Source of the DNA: an uncultured Candidatus Saccharibacteria bacterium
GTDB taxonomy: Bacteria; Patescibacteriota; Minisyncoccia; UBA6257; 2-01-FULL-56-20
Length of the DNA stretch: 51,226 nt
Assembly (NCBI GenBank): GCA_964555255.1
Contig: CAZKRG010000001.1
Coordinates: 1-51,226 of the forward strand
Direction of reading: 5' to 3'
The notes beneath the pieces were generated by a model, which was not told the DNA's origin, did not search any database, and was given only the letters and a program-made list of their open reading frames with translations. Numbering within the stretch: position 1 is the first letter of the stretch; every line of letters starts with the position of its first letter. The position numbers and the translations under genes are program-made. Below, in pieces: positions 78 through 39,184 of the stretch.

Positions 78-710
78 ATGAAAGCATTTAGAAACGGTTT
101 AGCAACAGGATTAATTCTTCAGCTAGCGGTTGGACCAGTGTTCTTTTTTATTATGAACTTAGTGCTGCAGAAATCATTTGTAGATGGTTTCGCTGGTGTA
201 ATTGCAGTAACTTTAGTTGACTACTTTTATATTTCACTTGCGATTCTGGGGATTGGGAAAGTATTAGAGAATAAAAAGTTTAAAAATATTTTTGGAATTA
301 TCAGTTCGATTGTTCTTGCAATCTTCGGAGTGGTGATCATAGGAAGTACTACTGACATCGAAACATCTTCGACTATAATTTCGACAAGTTTATTTTCAAG
401 CTTTCTCTCCGTCTTTCTGCTGACAATCTCAAGTCCGATGACTATAGTTTTCTTCACGAGTTTATTTACCGCAAAAGCTCTTGAATATAACTACACCCCA
501 AAAGAACTACTGACCTTTGGTCTCGGAACCGGATTCGCCACCTTTCTTTTTATGGGATTGTCCACGGTGATATTTTCTCTAATAAGAGGAGCGGTCCCAT
601 CATTATTGATCCAAATTCTAAACTTAATAATAGGAAGTCTACTAATTGGATATGGAACAGTAAGATTGGTAAAAGTTTTAAAACTTCCCACACAACATGA
701 ACACCGATAA
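78..710 (+). CDS. LysE/ArgO-family amino-acid exporter (multi-pass membrane protein)
   Basis: 210-aa hydrophobic ORF. N-terminus GLATGLILQLAVGPVFFF resembles the LysE/RhtB exporter signature. Locally AT-rich compared with the next genes. Confidence 0.65.
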   Translation: MKAFRNGLATGLILQLAVGPVFFFIMNLVLQKSFVDGFAGVIAVTLVDYFYISLAILGIGKVLENKKFKNIFGIISSIVLAIFGVVIIGSTTDIETSSTIISTSLFSSFLSVFLLTISSPMTIVFFTSLFTAKALEYNYTPKELLTFGLGTGFATFLFMGLSTVIFSLIRGAVPSLLIQILNLIIGSLLIGYGTVRLVKVLKLPTQHEHR

Positions 711-1248
711 ACCAATCCTCAAAGAACTGAACCAGCGCAAATCGGTGCGCGCGTTTCTGCCGAAAGAAATCGAACCGGAAAAATTGGAATGCCTTTGGGC
801 GGCAGCGCAGTGGGCGCCGTCGAGTTCCAACAAGCAAGAATGGCGCTACTATGCCGTGACCGGAAAAGAACGGGAAAAGTTCGCGGAGATTCTAACCCCC
901 GGAAACCACTGGGCACTCAAAGCTCCCCTCCTCCTCTGCGTCACCCGCGACACCTCAATTGAAAACAAAGTGGAAACGCGCGAGTACGGCACCTACGACG
1001 TAGCGCTCTCCGTAATGTCACTCGTCACCGAAGCCGAACACCAAGGCCTCCGCGCGCACCAGATGGCCGGATTTAAAGAAGAACCTTGCCGAGAAATTTT
1101 GAATATCCCCACGAACGAGTTTCCGCTCGTGATCGTCGCCGTGGGCTACGAAGGAAAAATAGAAGACCTCGATCCAGTGAATCAAGAAAAGGAACGCCGT
1201 CCACGCACCAGAAAGCCGATCGAGCAAGTGGTAAAATTCGTAAGGTAA
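697..1248 (+). CDS. Nitroreductase-family oxidoreductase
   Basis: 183 aa. RKSVRAFLPKEI...WAPSSSNKQEWRYYAV matches the nitroreductase N-terminal FMN-binding pattern. Start overlaps the upstream stop by 14 nt. Confidence 0.75.
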   Translation: MNTDKPILKELNQRKSVRAFLPKEIEPEKLECLWAAAQWAPSSSNKQEWRYYAVTGKEREKFAEILTPGNHWALKAPLLLCVTRDTSIENKVETREYGTYDVALSVMSLVTEAEHQGLRAHQMAGFKEEPCREILNIPTNEFPLVIVAVGYEGKIEDLDPVNQEKERRPRTRKPIEQVVKFVR

Positions 1249-1264
1249 GAATAGTGCGGAAAAA

Positions 1265-1858
1265 ATGGACATTAAATTTTACACCGGAATTATCGCGGGT
1301 ATTATCTCGCTGGTTTCCTACCTGATTTACTTCCGATCAATCCTCAAAGGTGAAACGAAACCAAATCGGGTTACCTGGTGGATATGGATTTTTATGGGCG
1401 CGGTACTAACCTCCAGTTACTACGCCTCAGGCGCCCGAGACACGATTTGGTCGCCGCTCGCTGAATTTTTAGGCCCGCTCGTCACCGCGATACTTGCGAT
1501 TAAGTATGACGAAGGAAATATGGCAGACAAAACTGATCTCGTGTGTTTTGCGGGAGGAATCGGAAGTCTCGTGCTGTGGGGAATCACCGGCGATCCTGCG
1601 CTCGCATTGGCGTTAAGCTTGCTCATTGATTTCTTTGCAATCGTACCCACGATGAAAAAATCATACGTGCGACCCAAGGGCGAGAGTTTCACCGCATGGA
1701 CCTGCACCAGTCTCGGCGATTTCTTAAATTTGCTCTCAGTAGAAACCTATACGTTCGTCATAATTCTCTATCCTGCTTGGATGCTCTTCACCGATCTCAT
1801 CATCGTAGGTCTCTTGGGAAGAAAGCAAAAACCGAAGCGACGTGTCGCGTTGGCGTAA
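1265..1858 (+). CDS. Integral membrane protein, unknown function
   Basis: 197-aa ORF with about 6 predicted hydrophobic helices. No motif I can name. Confidence 0.5.
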   Translation: MDIKFYTGIIAGIISLVSYLIYFRSILKGETKPNRVTWWIWIFMGAVLTSSYYASGARDTIWSPLAEFLGPLVTAILAIKYDEGNMADKTDLVCFAGGIGSLVLWGITGDPALALALSLLIDFFAIVPTMKKSYVRPKGESFTAWTCTSLGDFLNLLSVETYTFVIILYPAWMLFTDLIIVGLLGRKQKPKRRVALA

Positions 1859-1861
1859 CTC

Positions 1862-2614
1862 CTACCCCGCGAGCCGCACAATAATATAGAGCATGAGCAT
1901 CCCCGCAATCGTCATATACGTGGTGAACCGCACCGGATGCGCGTGATGACTTTCGGGAATGAGATCACTCGCGCCGATGTAAAGGAAAAATCCCGCGAAG
2001 AGTGCGAGGAAAAGCGCCAGAGTTTCTTGAGGCACGGCGAAAAAGAATGTCACTGTGACTCCAAGCACGGGCGCCAAGGCGTCCACAAAAAGCCAGCGCA
2101 TGGCACGCGCACGATCTCCGGCATTTTTTAAAATCATATTCACCGTATTGATGCCGTCCGAGAAATCATGGGTGAGTACCGCCGCTGCCACGACCACTCC
2201 CACCGCTGCCGATACTTGGAACGCCAACCCAATACCGATCCCATCCAAAAAACTGTGGAACGAGAGACTCCCCGCACCCGCAGTGCCACGAGGGTGTATG
2301 TGGTGGATATGCTCCTCTCCCTCATGCACATGTCCGTGGAGGAGCACTAGCCGATCCACCATCAAGTAAAAAATAAATCCGAGCGCGGTGAGAGAAAGGA
2401 TCGTCGCGGGACTATAAAAACGGTCACCAAGTTCCACGGCTTCGGGAAGTATATCGAAAAAAGCCACGCCCACAATCGCGCCGGCACTGAATCCTAAAAT
2501 AAGATGGAGTTTATCACGCAACCGAAGCGCGAACACTCCTCCGAGAAACGTCGCTGCAAAGGCGGCAACCGCTATCCAAAACACTGAGGGCATATCTCTA
2601 TAATACCACTCCAT
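1862..2614 (-). CDS. zupT: ZIP-family divalent metal transporter (ZupT-like)
   Basis: 250 aa. His-rich loop HGHVHEGEEHIHHIH, HDFSDG and HHAHP motifs, 8-TM-like profile typical of ZIP/ZupT. Confidence 0.8.
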   Translation of the reverse strand: MEWYYRDMPSVFWIAVAAFAATFLGGVFALRLRDKLHLILGFSAGAIVGVAFFDILPEAVELGDRFYSPATILSLTALGFIFYLMVDRLVLLHGHVHEGEEHIHHIHPRGTAGAGSLSFHSFLDGIGIGLAFQVSAAVGVVVAAAVLTHDFSDGINTVNMILKNAGDRARAMRWLFVDALAPVLGVTVTFFFAVPQETLALFLALFAGFFLYIGASDLIPESHHAHPVRFTTYMTIAGMLMLYIIVRLAG

Positions 2615-3592: not shown

Positions 3593-5626
3593 ATGGCTAA
3601 AAAAGAAGATAAAGAAAAAGCAAAATCCTCCTACGGCGCCAAGGACATTCAGGTGCTCGAAGGGTTGGAACCCGTCCGCAAACGGCCGGGAATGTACATC
3701 GGCTCCACGGGCACCGATGGCTTCCATCACCTCATCTGGGAAATCGTCGACAACTCGATCGACGAAGCGATGGCGGGCCGGGCAAAAAATATCACCGTAG
3801 AACTTTTGAAGGATGGCAAAGTGAGCGTTACGGACGATGGCGCCGGAATTCCGGTAGAAACTCATCACCAAACAAAGAAGTCCACGCTCGAGACAGTCAT
3901 GACCACCCTCCACGCGGGAGGCAAATTCGGCGGAGAATCCTACAAAGTCTCCGGAGGATTGCATGGCGTGGGTGCCTCGGTAGTGAATGCACTTTCGGAA
4001 CATCTCGTGGCGGAAGTGTGGCGCGATGGCGGCCACTTTATTCAAGAGTATAAACGCGGGATACCGACGGCAAAAGTGAAAAAGGTGGGGAGCGGCGATC
4101 ACACCGGCACAAAAGTCACGTTCTTCCCCGATGCGCAAATCTTCTCGGAACGGGAATGGAATCCGAAGCGGATTATGGATCACTTGCGCCAGCAGGCGTA
4201 CCTCACGAAAGGAGTACGCATCAATTTCTATGACTGGCGCGGAGAATTCCCACTCTTCTATGGTTTCTACTTTGAAGGTGGTCTCCTCTCCTTTGCAAAA
4301 CATCTCACGCGCAACAAAAAAACATTACAGGAAGAAGTATTCCATGTAATAAAAACCCAAAACAACATCGAGATTGAAGCCGCATTTCTTTACGTCGACG
4401 ACACCAAAACCGAAGAACTTTCTTTTGCAAACAACATCTACACTCCCGATGGCGGTATGCATCTCACGGGCTTCCGCTCCGCCTTGACCCGAACCTTAAA
4501 CAACTACGCCCGCGCGGAAGGATACCTCAAGGAAAAAGAAGAGAATTTTACCGCAGATGACGTGCGCGAGGGTCTCGTCGCCGTCCTCTTAGTGAAACTC
4601 CGCGAACCGCAGTTCGAAGGGCAAACAAAAGCCCGCCTCGGAAATCCCGAAGCCCGCACCGCAAGCGAAGCAGTCATCAACGAGAGTCTCAAAGAATTTC
4701 TCGAACGCCATCCGCAAGAAGCGCGCCATGTGGTGGAAAAAGTACTCCTCACTGCCAAAGCAAGAATTGCCGCAAAAGCCGCCAAAGAAACCGTGCTTCG
4801 CAAAGGCGCCCTCGAGGGACTCACCCTTCCTGGCAAACTTGCCGATTGCACTTCGAAGGACCCGAGCGAATCTGAACTCTTTATTGTAGAGGGAGATTCC
4901 GCCGGCGGTTCGGCTAAGCAAGGCCGCGAACGGCGCACCCAAGCAATCTTCCCCCTCCGCGGGAAACCATTAAATGTAGAACGCGCCCGGATGGACAAAA
5001 TGCTTGCAAACAATGAAATTCGCTCGCTCGTCATCGCTATCGGTACTGCAATCGCGGAAGAATTTAATATGACGAGTCTCCGCTATCACAAAATAATTCT
5101 TATGAGTGATGCGGACGTAGACGGCGCGCACATCCGCACACTTCTTCTCACGCTCTTCTATCGCCACTTCCGCCCTGTGGTAGAAGGAGGATTCCTCTAC
5201 ATCGCCCAACCTCCTCTCTACCGCCTCCAAAGAGGAAAAGAAATTCAGTACGCATGGAGCGACACTCAAAAAGATAAAATTTTAAAGGAGCTCACAGATG
5301 CAAAAGCAGCAAAAGGAGGGAAGGTAAAGAAGGTGGAAGCTCCTGCGGATCAAGAACAAGAAGCTGAGGGCGGACCCTCAGATTCGGAGGGTGGAGAAAA
5401 GATCGCGGGAGTGAATGTGCAACGGTACAAAGGATTGGGAGAAATGAACCCCGAACAACTCTGGGAAACCACCATGAATCCCGAGCACCGTACCCTCCGG
5501 CAAGTGAGTGTCGCAGATGCAGAAGAAGCCGATCATCTTTTTGACATTCTTATGGGCGACGAAGTGGAACCGCGCAAAAAATTCATCCAAACGCACGCAA
5601 CTTCGGTACAAAACCTTGATATATAA
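3593..5626 (+). CDS. gyrB: DNA gyrase subunit B
   Basis: 677 aa. GHKL ATPase motifs (LEGLEPVRKRPGMYIGS, HLIWEIVDNSIDEA), Toprim EGDSAGG and PLRGKPLNV, C-terminal QRYKGLGEMNPEQLWETTM. Confidence 0.97.
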   Translation: MAKKEDKEKAKSSYGAKDIQVLEGLEPVRKRPGMYIGSTGTDGFHHLIWEIVDNSIDEAMAGRAKNITVELLKDGKVSVTDDGAGIPVETHHQTKKSTLETVMTTLHAGGKFGGESYKVSGGLHGVGASVVNALSEHLVAEVWRDGGHFIQEYKRGIPTAKVKKVGSGDHTGTKVTFFPDAQIFSEREWNPKRIMDHLRQQAYLTKGVRINFYDWRGEFPLFYGFYFEGGLLSFAKHLTRNKKTLQEEVFHVIKTQNNIEIEAAFLYVDDTKTEELSFANNIYTPDGGMHLTGFRSALTRTLNNYARAEGYLKEKEENFTADDVREGLVAVLLVKLREPQFEGQTKARLGNPEARTASEAVINESLKEFLERHPQEARHVVEKVLLTAKARIAAKAAKETVLRKGALEGLTLPGKLADCTSKDPSESELFIVEGDSAGGSAKQGRERRTQAIFPLRGKPLNVERARMDKMLANNEIRSLVIAIGTAIAEEFNMTSLRYHKIILMSDADVDGAHIRTLLLTLFYRHFRPVVEGGFLYIAQPPLYRLQRGKEIQYAWSDTQKDKILKELTDAKAAKGGKVKKVEAPADQEQEAEGGPSDSEGGEKIAGVNVQRYKGLGEMNPEQLWETTMNPEHRTLRQVSVADAEEADHLFDILMGDEVEPRKKFIQTHATSVQNLDI

Positions 5627-5682
5627 TGCAACTTATAATGAATAACATTCTTTTTCATAAGTCATAAGTACTTGTATTTTTA

Positions 5683-5715
5683 GAGTTATGATGATATAAA
5701 GAACCATCATAACTC
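5683..5715 (+). terminator. 11-bp perfect hairpin downstream of gyrB
   Basis: gagttatgatg (5683-5693) and catcataactc (5705-5715), followed by ctttctt. A plausible gyrB terminator just upstream of secE. Confidence 0.4.
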
Positions 5716-5729
5716 CTTTCTTAGGTATA

Positions 5730-5915
5730 ATGAGTAGATTAAAAAAATTTTTACAGGAATCTCGCGAGGAATTCCGGCATGTAAACTGGCCCACGCGCCA
5801 AGAAGCAACCCGCCTCACTACCATCGTAGTAGGACTCTCCGTAGGACTCTCGGCATTCCTCGGATTTTTCGATTTTGTGTTTACCACGGTCGTGCGAACA
5901 ATCATTACGCGTTAA
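5730..5915 (+). CDS. secE: Preprotein translocase subunit SecE
   Basis: 61 aa. ESREEFRHVNWPTRQEA followed by a single TM helix. Canonical position directly upstream of nusG. Confidence 0.85.
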   Translation: MSRLKKFLQESREEFRHVNWPTRQEATRLTTIVVGLSVGLSAFLGFFDFVFTTVVRTIITR

Positions 5916-5938
5916 TCACTAATTATTAACAATACACC

Positions 5939-6496
5939 ATGCCTAAACTCGAAGCCCAACAAGAAAACGGGAAGCGAGAATGGTACGCTGTCCAAACATA
6001 CTCTGGATATGAAGAAGCAGTTGCACGCTACTTGAAACAGCGCATCGAATCGCTCACTATGAGCGATAAGATATTTAATGTAATCGTTCCTAAAGAAAAG
6101 AGGATCAGAGTAAAAAGTGGCCGCCGTCAAACTATTGAGGAAAAAATCTATCCAGGATACGTACTCGTGGACATGATCCTCACCGAAGATTCCTGGTATG
6201 TAGTGCGAAACACCCCCCGCGTGACCGGATTTGTAGGTCCCGACAACACGAAACCCACCCCTCTCTCAAAAACAGAGGTGGAATCCTTGCTTTCGCGCAT
6301 CGGCAAAGACGAAAATAAATTTACAATGGATCTTAAAATAGGAGATCTCATAAAAATTATCGACGGCCCATTCAAAGAGTACGATGGTAAAATTGCAGAA
6401 GTGGATGAAACGCGGAATCGCGTGAAAGTGATGGTGCCCATCTTCGGTCGAGATACCGCAGTCGAGCTTGATTCCTTGCAAGTCAAGAAACTTTGA
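5939..6496 (+). CDS. nusG: Transcription termination/antitermination factor NusG
   Basis: 185 aa. WYAVQTYSGYEE NGN domain and C-terminal KOW (GDLIKIIDGPFKEYDGKIAEVD). Confidence 0.95.
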   Translation: MPKLEAQQENGKREWYAVQTYSGYEEAVARYLKQRIESLTMSDKIFNVIVPKEKRIRVKSGRRQTIEEKIYPGYVLVDMILTEDSWYVVRNTPRVTGFVGPDNTKPTPLSKTEVESLLSRIGKDENKFTMDLKIGDLIKIIDGPFKEYDGKIAEVDETRNRVKVMVPIFGRDTAVELDSLQVKKL

Positions 6497-10466: not shown

Positions 10467-10599
10467 TCGAGGCCTCGCCGAGAATAGTATGCCGCGGTGG
10501 GCTGGATGTGAAGCATTCAGCGGGCACAAAAGTGCCCAGGGCCACCACCGCATACAGTTTTTTGCTCGAGGCTCAGCCGAGATGTATATGCCGCGGTGG
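10467..10599 (+). repeat. Direct duplication of the tRNA-Leu leader plus the first 10 nt of the tRNA
   Basis: tcgaggcctcgccgagaatagtatgccgcggtgg (10467-10500) versus tcgaggctcagccgagatgtatatgccgcggtgg (10566-10599). Confidence 0.8.
10491..10561 (+). ncRNA. Candidate ~65-nt structured RNA that starts with the tRNA-Leu 5' sequence
   Basis: Closing stem GCGGTGG/CCACCGC encloses two hairpins (GCTGGATG-TGAAG-CATTCAGC and GGGCAC-AAAA-GTGCCC). It ends ...CCGCA and is followed by a T6 run. Not a cloverleaf. Confidence 0.3.
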
Positions 10600-10673
10600 C
10601 GGAACTGGCAGACGCACAGGATTCAAAACCCTGCGATCGCAAGGTCATGTGGGTTCAACTCCCACCCGCGGCA
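10590..10673 (+). tRNA. tRNA-Leu (anticodon CAA)
   Basis: Acceptor GCCGCGG/CCGCGGC plus A73, loop TTCAAAA, long variable arm, T arm GTGGG-TTCAACT-CCCAC. CCA is not encoded. Confidence 0.9.
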
Positions 10674-10696
10674 CATTAACTCAATCATGTTTAATT

Positions 10697-10876
10697 CGCG
10701 GGTGGGAGTTGGACAAAGGGTGGGCTGGCCCGCCTCGCCGGAGCTCCAGCGATGCGAGAGGGAAGGCTATCGGATTCCCTCCGTGAAGGAAAACCGCGGA
10801 GCGGATGTGAAAAACCGTGGGTTTCTCAAGCGCAATCCCGAATACGTCGAGGGTGAGCAGTGAAACTCCCACCCGC
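10697..10876 (+). other. GC-rich ~180-nt structured non-coding segment closed by a 13-14-bp helix
   Basis: cgcgggtgggagtt (10697-10710) pairs with aaactcccacccgc (10863-10876). It can alternatively pair with the tRNA-Leu 3' end (10656-10670). Internal 7-bp stem GAGGGAA/TTCCCTC and others. ORFs in the track here lack any protein-like features. Confidence 0.35.
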
Positions 10877-11332: not shown

Positions 11333-11335
11333 TTG

Positions 11336-11407
11336 TGCCGACGGGAGGAATCGGACCTCCGACCCGACGCTTATGAAACGTCTGCTCTGCCACTGAGCTA
11401 CGTCGGC
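11336..11407 (-). tRNA. tRNA with CAT anticodon (elongator Met or lysidine-dependent Ile2)
   Basis: GCCGACG TA GCTC AGTGGCA GAGC A GACGT TTCATAA GCGTC GGGTC GGAGG TCCGATT CCTCC CGTCGGC A. G1-C72 is paired. Confidence 0.85.
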
Positions 11408-11413
11408 AATCTG

Positions 11414-11485
11414 TTGCGGGGGCGGGAATTGAACCCACTACCTCAAGCTTATGGGGCTTGCGAGCAACCGTTGCTCCTCCCCGCG
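11414..11485 (-). tRNA. Initiator-type tRNA-fMet (CAT)
   Basis: CGCGGGG...CCCCGCA A gives the bacterial initiator C1/A72 mismatch. Anticodon arm CAAGC CCCATAA GCTTG, T arm GTGGG TTCAATT CCCGC. Confidence 0.8.
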
Positions 11486-12516: not shown

Positions 12517-13117
12517 TGCCCGCACTTTTGAATACGGTAGAATAGTAAGGAACCATAATAAAACAAGGCATTCCCCGTTCTCCGAGACCACTTCTCATCA
12601 CTTTTCTGCCTCGAAAACCGTGGAACGCCTTGTTCCTCATGAATATCATACTCCAGAAGTGGCGTTTCTTGAACGCCACGGTTCCTTGTGTCCCGAAGCA
12701 AATCAGAAAACTGTACGAATTTGGTTTGGGCATCATCGTCGACCGGAAGGGCGGCATGCCTGAGTCGTGGTTCCTGATCACGAATGATACGGCTTCCTCC
12801 CGAGACGAGATCATCGCCTGCTACTATCACCGTTTCGAGATCGAGGAGTTCTTCCGCGATGCAAAGCGGCTTCTTGACCTCGAATGGGTCACATGGAAAT
12901 CCGAGGCCAGTATTGCCGCCACGCTCTGGTTCGTGATCCTCGGCATCTGGTGCCTCCGGCATATCACGGATGGCATGGACGATCTCATGAAAGCGGCCCG
13001 CGGGAAAATGCGGCTCAGCGAAAGCCGGACGTGCTCGAAGCGCTCAAATCAGCGGCGCTTCAAGCTTCCGAAGGTGAATATGTACATTCTTACGATACAT
13101 GAAAAAAAGTGCGGGCA
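12517..13117. mobile_element. Truncated IS4-like element remnant bounded by a 13-bp inverted repeat
   Basis: tgcccgcactttt (12517-12529) and aaaagtgcgggca (13105-13117) flank a C-terminal transposase fragment. Confidence 0.6.
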
Positions 13118-13157
13118 TTTTAGCATAGCCAACGTCGGGCTTTTTCTTTTTTCCTGA
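12630..13157 (+). pseudogene. DDE transposase C-terminal fragment (IS4-like)
   Basis: Contains YYHRFEIEEFFRDAKRLL, the Y-x2-R-x3-E-x6-K signature of IS4-type transposases. The N-terminal two-thirds is missing. Confidence 0.65.
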
Positions 13158-15556: not shown

Positions 15557-15677
15557 GAGTACCATCACTCCGTCGTCTTCCCCTCGAAATGTTCTCCTTC
15601 GTCTTTTTCTGCGTCCGCTTTCGTCACGTGCATCACCCCGTCCCAATGATTCGGTGGCGCATACACCGTATACAATT

Positions 15678-16672
15678 TCATGGGTAAGGGAACTTTCGTG
15701 TTGGTTTTTCTCTCATCGGCCGCTTCAAATTTGAGAGGACAATCGATACGAGCGTTTTCTTTTGAATAAGAGTCAATCCCCGGTGCCTGCCCAGACCTTC
15801 GGCGATGGCGGTATTCACCCAGCCTTCCACAAGGTTCGTGGTATTGGGGCACCCCCCGGAACGTCAAGATAGGTGAAAAGACTCGGCAGTGATCGCCGCA
15901 TCACGGTGCTTACGCTCCGCAGCTTCCGATACCGATATCCGCCCGACTCGGTTTTCTCATTGAATACCTTTTCGTATTGATGTTCCCAGATACGGTAGAG
16001 GAGAAGCCAATGACGCTTCTCCTCATGGGGAGCGATCATTTTCAAACGATGTGCAAGGTCGAGCACCTCGCGCCCGGCCTGCTCTTTGGGGTTGCGCGAA
16101 AGATAGTGCGTCACGAGCAGTACCATGTGAAAATGGCACCGCTGGAAGGCAGTACCCGGCCAATGGCGTTTGACAAAGTGCCACATACCTTTGTGGCCGT
16201 CTGCGACCACAATCTTTGGCTGCGAAAATTGCCTGAGGAACTTCCCCAGGTGCCGTATCGTTCCTCGGGAGCGAATTGCCAGAAGATACGGCCTCCTCAG
16301 TCACCGCGATAAGGACGCAGAGCACCCGATGGATGGTGGATGTATTTTGCATCCACGATGAGGAGATCAATCTTCAGAATAGCGGGATTGGAGGACTCTC
16401 GACTGGTTCCAGGAAAAACCTCTGAATTCTTTCGTGAGTGCGCGGCGGCTCACGCCATAGCGCTTTGCGATGTCCGTCTTGCTCTGTACGCCGGTGAGCC
16501 AAGTGACGAAGCGATCCCGATCATGGCGGAGACGTGTATCCTGGCGATGGAGAGTGCTTGAGCGGCAGCACCGCGGGCATCGATACCGCTCCGTTCCCGC
16601 TGCCGTCCGGCCCCATTTCTGCATCTCCTTCCCGCATTGCACACAGTGTTTGTTATGCATGCAAACAGACAA
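15678..16672 (-). pseudogene. DDE transposase, multiply frameshifted (N-terminal Zn-ribbon plus HTH; IS256/Mutator-like core)
   Basis: ORF 16672-16367 has CxxC...CxxC plus an HTH. Catalytic-core pieces LIVDAKYI, VLCVLIAVTEE, IVVADGHKGMW...FQRCHFH and PNTTNLVEGW lie in different frames. One shift is at a G6 run. The stop falls at the left IR. Family assignment uncertain. Confidence 0.65.
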
Positions 16673-16777
16673 ATCGATGTTTATTTGCAGATCAAGGCAG
16701 GCGAAAAAGCTTGATGCTATCGAGCGTTTTCGTCTGCCCGTCGATCAGAAAACCAACACGAAAGTTCCCTTAACCCA
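15681..16777 (-). mobile_element. ~1.1-kb insertion sequence with intact terminal inverted repeats
   Basis: Perfect 24-bp IRs taagggaactttcgtgttggtttt (15685-15708) and aaaaccaacacgaaagttccctta (16749-16772), extendable to about 28 bp with one indel. They enclose a Zn-ribbon/HTH ORF and DDE transposase fragments. Confidence 0.8.
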
Positions 16778-16786
16778 ACAAAGACT

Positions 16787-16824
16787 GCCGCCACGTTTTC
16801 GAACATGGCGGCGGTTCTTTTTTT
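16787..16824 (+). terminator. Intrinsic terminator-like hairpin
   Basis: gccgccacg-ttttcgaa-catggcggc followed by ggttcttttttt. Confidence 0.5.
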
Positions 16825-16900
16825 GCGAGCATTTGAACCGGCAAAACTCCACATTCCACAAGGACAAAACGAGGTTTTGGCCTCAATAAGTCCCGACTTG

Positions 16901-17100
16901 CGCGGGTGATGGGATTTGAACCCATGGCCTTCCCTCGCGATCCCGCACCAAATGTACTTACTGCGGGTCCGACCGGATTTGAACCGGCGATCTTCCCCGT
17001 GACAGGGGGACGTGTTAAACCGGGCTACACCACGGACCCATTTGTATTTGGTGCGGGACGGGGCAGGGGGACGCTCTAGACCGGACTGAGCTACGCCCGC
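16901..17100 (-). other. Split tRNA-like gene (5' half 17100-17059, 3' half 16940-16901) enclosing tRNA-Asp
   Basis: 5' half GCGGGCG TA GCTC AGTCCGGTCTA GAGC G TCCCC CTG...; 3' half ...AGGGA AGGCC ATGGG TTCAAAT CCCAT CACCCGC G. The inner ends carry a 13-nt perfect complement, TCCCGCACCAAAT/ATTTGGTGCGGGA (plus-strand 16941-16953 and 17046-17058). Confidence 0.4.
16964..17039 (-). tRNA. tRNA-Asp (anticodon GTC)
   Basis: GGGTCCG TG GTGT AGCCCGGTTTA ACAC G TCCCC CTGTCAC GGGGA AGATC GCCGG TTCAAAT CCGGT CGGACCC G. All stems pair. G73 fits Asp identity. Confidence 0.92.
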
Positions 17101-17231
17101 AAACGAGAAGCGGGGATGAATACGGAAGTATTCATATTTGCTTCAAGTGCAGCGGGCGAAAACTTTGTTTACACCCGCAGGCATCCACTAGTATACGGAA
17201 CCTTAAAACACTTTTCAATATTTCCTCGCAA

Positions 17232-17281
17232 TCCCACTACTCCATTAATTTGCCGATCGGCAAATTAATGGAGTAGTGGGA
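17232..17281. repeat. Perfect 50-bp palindrome (25-bp arms, no spacer)
   Basis: tcccactactccattaatttgccga|tcggcaaattaatggagtagtggga. Lies 14 nt downstream of the ligA stop. No U-tract on either strand after the hairpin. Confidence 0.9.
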
Positions 17282-17294
17282 AAAAGCAGGGAAA

Positions 17295-19878
<2,584 letters not shown>

Positions 19879-39046: not shown

Positions 39047-39184
39047 CGCGGGAAAATTATACGAATTAAAACGGCAAATGAATACCCCGCCCCGCATCCG
39101 CCAACTGGCGGAGCGGGGCGGGGTATTGCACATCCGGTTCAATCCTTTTCGCCGCGCGATCAGGATAACCGGTGCAGCCAATCA

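Follow-up and report, generated by a model that had tools for sequence, protein, structure and literature searches.

A tRNA-Asp gene inside a split tRNA-Asp-like gene of a candidate phyla radiation bacterium, and the palindromic family that appears to have placed it there

The minus strand of a 51,226 nt stretch of contig CAZKRG010000001.1 (the window, by which the whole of that stretch is meant) carries, from 17100 to 16901, a complete tRNA-Asp(GTC) gene between two complementary arms of 13 nt, and all of this lies inside a second tRNA-Asp-like gene. The insert is 123 nt in length and stands between positions 34 and 35 of the outer gene. The favoured reading, to which a probability of roughly 0.6 is given here, is that a palindrome-bounded cassette with its own tRNA-Asp has split the resident tRNA-Asp gene between G34 and U35, that the old promoter now drives expression of the cargo, and that what is left of the outer gene is in decay. 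An earlier note on this DNA, made from the letters of the sequence, had offered this as one of three readings (a tRNA pseudogene disrupted by a tRNA-Asp cassette flanked by inverted repeats), and it is the one that the evidence favours.

All of the segments listed in that note are present on the minus strand and are correct to the base (Table 1), and the two 13-mers that it described as perfect complements are found by a repeat search as an inverted repeat of 100% complementarity. Only 11 inverted repeats with arms of 13 nt or more, spaced within 200 nt, are found in the 51 kb window, and the pair is one of them; the chance expectation at such spacing, by an estimate of our own, is about 0.15 perfect 13-mers. 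The outer 5' part contains the 5' strand of the acceptor stem, the D arm, and the 5' strand of the anticodon stem, followed by C32 T33 G34, while the outer 3' part (16901..16940) contains the 3' strand of the anticodon stem, in which there is one A too many (G-A-GGGA), the variable loop, the T arm, the 3' strand of the acceptor stem, and G73. A consensus scan places a promoter-like site some 90 nt upstream of the outer gene and a terminator-like hairpin 15 nt past its 3' end, so placed that they enclose the outer gene, not the inner gene. Both outer halves, 123 nt apart on one strand, are between this one promoter-like and this one terminator-like site. The inner tRNA-Asp(GTC) is presumed to be the working gene.

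As it stands, the outer gene is detected neither by ARAGORN, long-intron settings included, nor by Rfam, and only the inner gene is reported. When the tail, arms, and cargo are removed exactly, ARAGORN at its defaults calls the outer gene tRNA-Asp(GTC), and it accepts a cloverleaf for every plausible in silico splice of the outer halves. The outer gene had been taken for a paralogue of tRNA-Asp, which is right, as removal of the insert gives the GTC anticodon. The spliced form has an acceptor stem paired at 6 of 7 positions (C6/A67), a D stem paired at 4/4, a T stem paired at 5/5, and one C.A mismatch in the anticodon stem, which is equivalently a bulged A, in agreement with the single anticodon-stem mismatch, intact D and T arms, and G73 noted earlier. 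Across the insertion point the anticodon loop reads CTG/TCGC in the window and exactly CTG/TCAC in relatives (related contigs are designated here by L numbers), and the would-be junction runs from ...CCCCCTG to TCGCGAGGG... in the window and from ...CTCCCTG to TCACGGAGA... in L129 and L137.

The same nesting is found elsewhere. A pattern scan of metagenomes, for a T arm of tRNA-Asp type followed by a second T loop 35–56 nt on, matched 16 contigs, five of which have the nest, these being four distinct Parcubacteria sequences as L126 and L135 are identical here. In L135, L129, and L137 a tRNA-Asp is nested in a tRNA-Asp gene, and in L133 a tRNA-Glu(CTC) is within a tRNA-Glu-like gene, such that the identity of the cargo matches that of its target (Asp in Asp, Glu in Glu). 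After in silico removal of the insert, ARAGORN at its defaults calls L129 and L137 Asp(GTC) and L133 Glu(CTC). L139 is also nested, with two further insertions in its outer 5' half. L124 and L138 keep the right arm together with the outer 3' half, having lost the outer 5' half, and in L127 the last third of an older tRNA-Asp alone remains; L124 and L127 share with the window the convergent arrangement of gatCA and tRNA-Asp. The insert is at 34/35 in every nested locus, with lengths of 104–127 nt, and the inner tRNA genes are intact throughout (Rfam 53–70 bits), that of the window differing from that of L138 solely by a 1 nt D-loop indel (75/76 nt). At the orthologous site downstream of pyrH there is a plain tRNA-Asp in L147 and L148, two relatives of L137, as against the nest in L137 itself.

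The arms belong to a family of palindromic elements, of which 14 copies at eight distinct loci were tabulated. All are hairpins, of 7–17 bp, sharing a tail of 4–5 nt (CYTG, in the window CCCCG) and arms of the form CCCCG[C/T]A... / ...T[G/A]CGGGG, which in the extended, GC-clamped form are CCCCGYACC.../...GGTRCGGGG. The left arm of the window is homologous to CCCCGCACCAAAA in L129 and L135, and its right arm to the right arms of L124, L129, L135, L138, and L139; the 10 nt trailer spacer of the window is, in alignment, mostly missing from L138 and L139. The arms and tail are conserved in sequence across lineages with GatA only ~60% identical, and although the arms vary in sequence they stay paired wherever there is a nest, the first pair being T-A in the window versus C-G elsewhere, and the arms of L137, L139, and L133 differing in sequence yet still pairing. 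Copies are within tRNA sequences in 13 of 14 cases. The base directly after the insert is T in 14/14 and the 5' flank is G in 12/14, and there is a direct repeat at the ends in none of the 14, thus no target-site duplication. Exact removal of the tail and arms leaves uninterrupted tRNA or PheT sequence, with no residue. The copies that have no cargo are about 31–44 nt long. Each of them lies either in the remnant of a tRNA or in a protein loop that tolerates it, and none was found in an otherwise complete tRNA at the loci of the scan. The in-frame copy in pheT of L137 is missing from 18 of the 18 nearest PheT homologues. A covariance model built on 12 copies recovers those without cargo at 27–40 bits and finds no further copies in ~230 kb of candidate phyla radiation (CPR) DNA, part of which is the remainder of the window and the nearest contigs of Liptonbacteria and Sungbacteria, which indicates that the family is patchy. 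The weak match to the model (22 bits) at 39081–39127 of the window, a GC-rich hairpin AATACCCCGCCCCGC...GCGGGGCGGGGTATT that has no tail, is probably an ordinary terminator, and in viral contigs the hairpin-foot pattern found generic terminators only.

Following the tRNA-Met pair in L135 (5616–5722) and L124 (~1035–945, minus strand) is a conserved tRNA-like 3' piece ending in ACCA, which has a palindromic element in its T loop. Just before it stands CGGG(G)CAAG, which is the tail and foot of the element in reverse complement; a matching 5' half was not found on those contigs, and the piece may be either a remnant or part of a split gene. The second tRNA-Met of L135 has an imperfect inverted repeat on both sides, the left arm of which takes in the 3' end of the first tRNA-Met.

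The members of this family are insertions at the DNA level and not bulge-helix-bulge (BHB) or group I introns, as is shown by the reversed copy in a D loop, by the in-frame pheT copy that the 18 nearest homologues lack, and by the plain tRNA-Asp at the pyrH site in L147 and L148. The reversed copy and the pheT copy were also the grounds for rejecting an origin at the RNA level, in which anticodon-nuclease cleavage at 34/35 would have been followed by mis-ligation and reverse transcription. When the locus is folded, or its halves are joined by a tetraloop, there is a 14 bp helix in which the 5' strand alone has a bulge, of 3 nt (CCC), and the anticodon stem is shifted; a BHB at the junction is absent from these folds and from the registers tried by hand for anticodon-loop and T-loop copies. 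There is likewise no group I core, the Rfam model RF00028 (Intron_gpI) being unmatched in the window at gathering score, in 16700–17300 at E up to 10, and in 15 related loci. The shared arm sequence, the presence and absence of copies among homologues (coding sequence included), and the occurrence of both orientations are features seen in palindromic repeats of the RPE and REP kind (below). These properties are those of a selfish palindrome acting on DNA, and of no known intron class. It had also been considered that the arms are a tRNA 3' end plus its complement (CCCCGC-A-CCA), which is unproven and was dropped.

The outer genes form a series of decay, from perfect to fragmentary, with the window copy in the middle. 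There are no defects in L129 and L137, which without the insert are flawless tRNA-Asp genes with the loop CTGTCAC, and L133 without its insert has one C.A mismatch. L135 has a damaged loop and a bulged A, the window has C6/A67, the bulged A, and G37, and L139 has three insertions, while in L124 and L138 the 5' half is lost and in L127 only the 3' third is left. The window and L135 share the oddity in the anticodon arm (TCCCC paired with G-A-GGGA), the remainder of their outer genes differing. The only complete tRNAs that are interrupted are those whose insert brings a tRNA of the same identity. This match between cargo and target, with the lack of cargo-free copies in complete tRNAs, is as selection predicts if insertion kills the host gene and persists only where it brings a replacement.

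On the favoured reading, the resident tRNA-Asp(GUC) gene would have been inactivated by insertion of DNA between G34 and U35 of its anticodon, the insert being a member of the palindromic family whose two arms enclose an entire tRNA-Asp(GUC) gene. This cargo would now be the working tRNA-Asp of the cell, transcribed from the promoter of the old gene through its terminator, with RNase P and a 3' nuclease excising the inner tRNA and the CCA end then being added. The 13 bp helix would be the arms of the element pairing as leader and trailer, and the outer halves would be left as debris of a gene that is decaying (C6/A67, the extra A of the anticodon stem, G37). Selection for replacement may explain why cargo and target match in identity. 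As to movement, the best guess is either gene conversion driven by an endonuclease or a single-strand transposase that recognises the hairpin; models with a tyrosine integrase were rejected, since these would give direct, not nested, arrangements.

Several observations weigh against this reading. The related loci all come from one scan that demanded particular T arms, and they form a small and biased sample. The window has no gene for a transposase, an integrase, or a GIY-YIG protein that can be linked to the element, and the IS256/Mutator remnants that adjoin the locus have no evident link to it. Five outer genes can be reconstructed, and pairing is kept at 104 of their 105 stem positions, both sides having changed at 12 of 21 pairs; L139, triply interrupted, is as fully paired as the others. 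The pairing and covariation of the stems show that the outer genes descend from diverse functional tRNA-Asp genes, and the pairing is as compatible with recent disruption as with ongoing constraint; that of L139, intact despite three interruptions, means that pairing alone is no proof of function. Outer genes that are functional would nevertheless show the same pairing, and the cassette reading then needs either that the disruptions are all recent or that the covariation is older than they are. L129 and L137 would, on excision from RNA, yield flawless 7 nt CTGTCAC loops. Lastly, the 13 nt arms of the window, L129, L135, and L124 are more alike than are their cargo tRNAs or their outer genes. 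That near-identical arms are found with cargo and outer genes of different types means that arms, cargo, and target have been reshuffled, and that movement of the whole cassette as a single unit cannot be the full account.

There is also an association of these loci with small GIY-YIG open reading frames (ORFs) at tRNA 5' ends. The ORF overlaps the 5' end of an intact tRNA in L130, L136, and L138, with the TAG of the tRNA itself (U8-A9-G10) serving as its stop in L138 and L130, and is just upstream of the tRNA in L125; in L140 it lies between two tRNA-Met genes that stand 6 nt apart in the window. Dead tRNA pieces are found beside the ORF and tRNA in L130 (Gly-like), L136 (Glu-like), and L125 (a body of Asp type with a GAA-like loop). 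The order in L138 is left arm, 15 nt tRNA 5' fragment, GIY-YIG ORF, tRNA-Asp, right arm, and outer 3' half, where the 15 nt fragment is a copy of the 5' end of its tRNA-Asp and the right arm has the same unusual terminal A as that of the window. As the loci were chosen by tRNA pattern only, the association is notable, and it suggests that tRNA genes are replaced through the action of an endonuclease. The link to the window rests on a single relative, L138, and there is no GIY-YIG gene in the window or in the five other nests (L129, L133, L135, L137, and L139).

Those endonuclease genes are the basis of a different account, a tentative possibility, in which a free-standing GIY-YIG homing endonuclease cuts the tRNA gene and repair copies the donor, made up of the endonuclease and a resistant tRNA allele, by way of tRNA homology. 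The arms would then be passengers or repair scars, and the window locus a derivative minus the endonuclease gene. This would suit the position of the ORFs of L130, L136, L138, and L125 against intact tRNAs with dead pieces adjoining, the dead pieces of L136 and L125 being overlapping direct duplications of the target such as recombination leaves. It would also suit the splitting of the tRNA-Met pair by the GIY-YIG gene of L140, and the anticodon-arm oddity shared by the window and L135, which co-conversion of flanks would give. It is harder to reconcile with the six nests, that of the window included, that have no such gene within reach, with arms that are a conserved sequence family and not random scars, and with precise inserts that, in having no duplication (and, for the pheT copy, no evident flanking homology), resemble transposition over repair. 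That the arms are instead a leader-trailer processing stem for tRNA-Asp maturation, for example as an entry point for RNase III or RNase P, with the outer halves incidental, had also been put forward in the earlier note. The helix is maintained in all nested loci despite sequence change, and in L137 and L139 the arms stack directly onto the acceptor stem of the inner tRNA, which would fit such a role. As the primary function of the arms it is very improbable, given that the un-nested tRNA-Asp genes of L147, L148, L125, and L131 have no leader-trailer pairing, that L124 has no left arm and still has an intact inner tRNA, and that elsewhere, even inside pheT, these arms enclose only a tiny loop in place of a tRNA. 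A chance resemblance or an assembly chimera is scarcely credible. The Logan assembly of the same organism (L003) does break 53 nt after ligA, and the region is therefore hard to assemble, but that break is in a separate palindrome of 50 nt. The outer halves score as tRNA at ARAGORN defaults, and the presence of homologous nests in independent assemblies from several projects excludes both chance and artefact.

The interruption might alternatively be removed from the RNA, either as an intron, with one precursor giving two tRNA-Asp molecules, or with the two halves held by the helix as a split tRNA, in which case the palindromes would be mobile introns, as tRNA introns are known to transpose in Thermoproteales. 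RNase P and RNase Z would free the inner tRNA, an endonuclease would act at the CYUG tail and helix, and a ligase such as RtcB would join the halves. Much of what has been described would be expected of such introns: L129 and L137 become perfect tRNAs once the insert is exactly removed, and L133 and the window come close to it; pairing holds at 99% of the outer stem positions, where many of the differences are compensatory; and the insertion sites (34/35, 53/54, the D loop, and 64/65) recall those of non-canonical archaeal introns. The conservation of arms and tail between distant lineages is as for a recognition site, and all but one of the 14 tabulated copies are in tRNA sequences, the cargo-free ones being recovered by the covariance model as well. 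Yet there is neither a BHB nor a group I core, and the host is bacterial. The window encodes an NAD-dependent DNA ligase, GatC, GatA, and type IV pilins, and the best named homologues of GatA are from Candidatus Liptonbacteria and other Patescibacteria, from which it follows that the host is a CPR bacterium and not an archaeon. Of the family members, one runs opposite to its tRNA and another is translated in frame in pheT, and one of the L139 interruptions, the third, is AT-rich and not a hairpin. The outer genes of L124, L127, and L138 are lost or fragmented while the inner gene stays, the window and L135 copies have an extra nucleotide in the anticodon arm, and no cargo-free copy was found in a complete tRNA. 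Both genes would read the same codons, and nothing forces retention of the outer gene. The archaeal type of intron or split tRNA offered in the earlier note is not supported in that form, given the lack of a BHB, the bacterial host, the reversed and protein-gene copies, and the decay of outer genes in relatives. No EndA-like protein is present among the window ORFs examined, a scan that covered a small part of the 51 kb. That Parcubacteria have a protein-dependent tRNA intron system that is neither BHB nor group I, in which some introns carry a tRNA and one transcript gives two tRNAs, is unlikely; it is for the intact copies that a true intron or split tRNA at the RNA level keeps a low probability.

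Table 1. Coordinates of the nested locus and of related features. Positions are those of the window unless a contig is named.
Feature	Position	Strand	Basis or remark
Outer 5' part (positions 1-34), GCGGGCG TA GCTC AGTCCGGTCTA GAGC G TCCCC CTG	17064..17100	-	sequence
Insert tail, CCCCG	17059..17063	-	counterpart of the CYTG tail of the family (compared with 13 other members)
Left palindrome arm, TCCCGCACCAAAT	17046..17058	-	100% complementary to 16941-16953
6 nt spacer, ACAAAT (5' leader of inner tRNA)	17040..17045	-	sequence
Inner intact tRNA-Asp(GTC), 76 nt, CCA not encoded	16964..17039	-	ARAGORN; Rfam RF00005, 63 bits
10 nt spacer, CAGTAAGTAC (3' trailer of inner tRNA)	16954..16963	-	sequence
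Right palindrome arm, ATTTGGTGCGGGA	16941..16953	-	complementary to left arm
TCGCG, start of outer 3' part (T35 C36 G37 C38)	16936..16940	-	
Outer 3' half, AGGGA AGGCC ATGGG TTCAAAT CCCAT CACCCGC G	16901..16935	-	sequence
Promoter-like site, TTGAAA, 17 nt, TATACT	17190..17218	-	consensus scan, 10/12 matches; pattern match only, putative function
Terminator-like hairpin then T run	16870..16885	-	consensus scan; pattern match only
Cargo-free copies, T loop 53/54 of tRNA 3' remnants	L124, L127, L129, L135		
Cargo-free copies, position 64/65	L127, L129		
Cargo-free copy, D loop of outer gene	L139	reversed relative to tRNA	removal restores GTGT AGCCTGGTTTA ACAC
Cargo-free copy, 36 nt, in frame in pheT	L137 ~866-902, inside ORF 378-2498	-	encodes twelve residues PAPYRTGGSGAG
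Small GIY-YIG ORF at tRNA 5' end (85-88 aa in all five)	L138 880-1143	-	88 codons; PF01541, E = 3e-18
Small GIY-YIG ORF at tRNA 5' end	L130 3893-4123		
Small GIY-YIG ORF at tRNA 5' end	L136 5380-5604		
Small GIY-YIG ORF at tRNA 5' end	L125 122-301		
Small GIY-YIG ORF at tRNA 5' end	L140 2574-2831	-	

Searches made by other routes add little to these loci. A search of GTDB genomes based on LigA gave no relatives, and an exact 22-mer of the outer D arm matched, in GTDB genomes, only an unrelated tRNA-Thr of Streptomyces and a tRNA-Gly of Chloroflexota. The nearest GatA relatives (Liptonbacteria, 71–79% identity) have no tRNA-Asp after gatA, and BLAST matches in phages are confined to the inner tRNA. 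Pfam analysis of the neighbours of the nests gave no mobility gene common to them. A generic scan of viral contigs for two T loops 40–58 nt apart was too broad, being saturated by phage tRNA arrays and att-like remnants. Many of the viral IMG/VR contigs L004–L123 have a tRNA followed at 40–58 nt by a second T-loop motif in which ARAGORN finds no second tRNA, and these motifs may be att sites or remnant 3' fragments.

Other features of the window are recorded here as observations in their own right. A perfect palindrome of 50 nt (25 nt arms, no loop), unique in the window, is at 17232–17281, just past the ligA stop and with the promoter-like site directly next to it; it is inside this palindrome, just upstream of the nested locus, that the L003 assembly stops. 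The tRNA-Leu(CAA) at 10590–10674 is surrounded by its own pieces, a second tRNA 'junkyard' (10488–10876) made up of its first 13 nt plus leader (~10488–10500), an inverted 3' end (10697–10714), and a direct 13 nt copy of the 3' end (10864–10876). A tRNA with a CAT anticodon and an odd D arm (11414–11485, minus strand; 49 bits with Rfam, missed by ARAGORN) is 6 nt upstream of the tRNA-Met at 11335–11407, and the same pair is present in L124, L135, L143, and L146. Broken transposase ORFs are at 15565–16672 and 12630–13157, an IS256/Mutator fragment (PF00872) adjoining the nested tRNA on its downstream side, where GC content is raised, and a DDE_Tnp_1 fragment near gatC. In the Liptonbacteria relative L143 a gene of the 23S-rRNA-intervening-sequence / bAvd family (PF05635) is between gatC and gatA, at 5569–5952.

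A tRNA gene nested in the anticodon loop of another is not known to have been described in Bacteria, and here it is a recurrent architecture; full-text searches gave no nested tRNA, and no tRNA introns or palindromic elements in CPR bacteria. The cassette reading points to a route by which essential single-copy tRNA genes might be turned over in very small genomes, where selfish DNA breaks the gene, brings a copy of it, and leaves remnants; a tRNA gene would in that case be the object of a "poison and antidote" strategy. There is a consequence for annotation as well, since the inner gene is all that standard tRNA finders give, and searches that allow for introns or split tRNAs could take the outer relic as functional. 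L129 and L137 are natural counterparts of the synthetic "tRNA scaffold" design, and allow a test of whether tRNA splicing without a ribozyme occurs in bacteria. An intron system, if true, would be a major finding, there being no earlier case in Bacteria of a tRNA-in-tRNA gene or of a tRNA intron that is not self-splicing.

Among known systems, group I introns interrupt the anticodon loops of bacterial tRNAs (10.1101/2020.01.27.920355). The inserts described here share with them the interruption of the anticodon loop, and some such introns have homing endonuclease genes; the present inserts differ in having no core recognised by Rfam and in being 104–127 nt long and mostly tRNA. The site of the group I intron of tRNA-Leu(UAA) is, like that of the nests, 34/35. 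Archaeal BHB introns and split tRNAs, treated in PMC10714607, are a further system for comparison. Their likeness to the present loci is in hairpin-like inserts at sites of the anticodon, T, and D loops, exact removal of which restores the tRNA, and in a GC-rich helix of 12–14 bp that joins halves as the leaders of split tRNAs do, a formal likeness. Unlike archaeal introns, the elements have no BHB, a bacterial host, a reversed copy, a copy in a protein gene, and outer genes in decay. The archaeal comparators are the transposing introns of Thermoproteales and the split tRNAs of Nanoarchaeum and Caldivirga; unlike split tRNAs of the Nanoarchaeum type, encoded at separate loci, both halves here are in one transcription unit. 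We know of no intron of the archaeal systems that encloses a second complete tRNA.

SegB of phage T4 is a free-standing GIY-YIG homing endonuclease in a tRNA cluster, tied to preferential replacement of the tRNA region. The small GIY-YIG genes between or against tRNA genes are like it, although they are in a cellular (Parcubacteria) genome and overlap the 5' end of the tRNA, with U8-A9-G10 as the stop. Williams is said to have described, in 2002, integrative elements whose targets are tRNA genes and which bring a segment of tRNA as a replacement. As with these, the invader here would break an essential tRNA gene (in the anticodon or T loop), restore function, and leave a remnant. Integrative elements replace only the 3' part, have direct repeats kilobases apart, and encode an integrase, whereas the insert in the window contains an entire tRNA, has the two remnant halves on either side within 200 nt, is bounded by inverted repeats, and has no integrase nearby. 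A classical miniature inverted-repeat transposable element or mobile insertion cassette differs in its target-site duplication, which is absent here.

Short palindromic repeats offer further parallels. Repetitive extragenic palindromic (REP) elements have a conserved 5' tetranucleotide and are mobilised by REP-associated tyrosine transposases (RAYT), of the IS200-IS605 Y1 type. The present family resembles them in its conserved 4 nt tail beside a GC-rich hairpin, in the lack of target duplication, in insertion in either orientation, and in the defined nucleotide at the insertion point; it differs in that REPs are extragenic and have no cargo, and in its tail, which is CYTG versus GTAG. No RAYT or Y1 (HUH) transposase gene was found among the neighbouring genes examined by Pfam. 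The Rickettsia palindromic elements (RPE) of Ogata et al., reported in 2000, are reported to be selfish palindromes that insert in frame into genes, and the likeness to them is one of features. The present elements differ in occurring in Parcubacteria and not Rickettsia, in being much shorter (~31–44 nt without cargo), in having a fixed asymmetric tail, in their concentration in the loops of tRNAs, and in their capacity to hold an entire tRNA gene. Like the RPE, they are a family of short palindromes with copies in protein genes, in frame, and in RNA genes, they encode no transposase, and some homologues have a copy where others have none.

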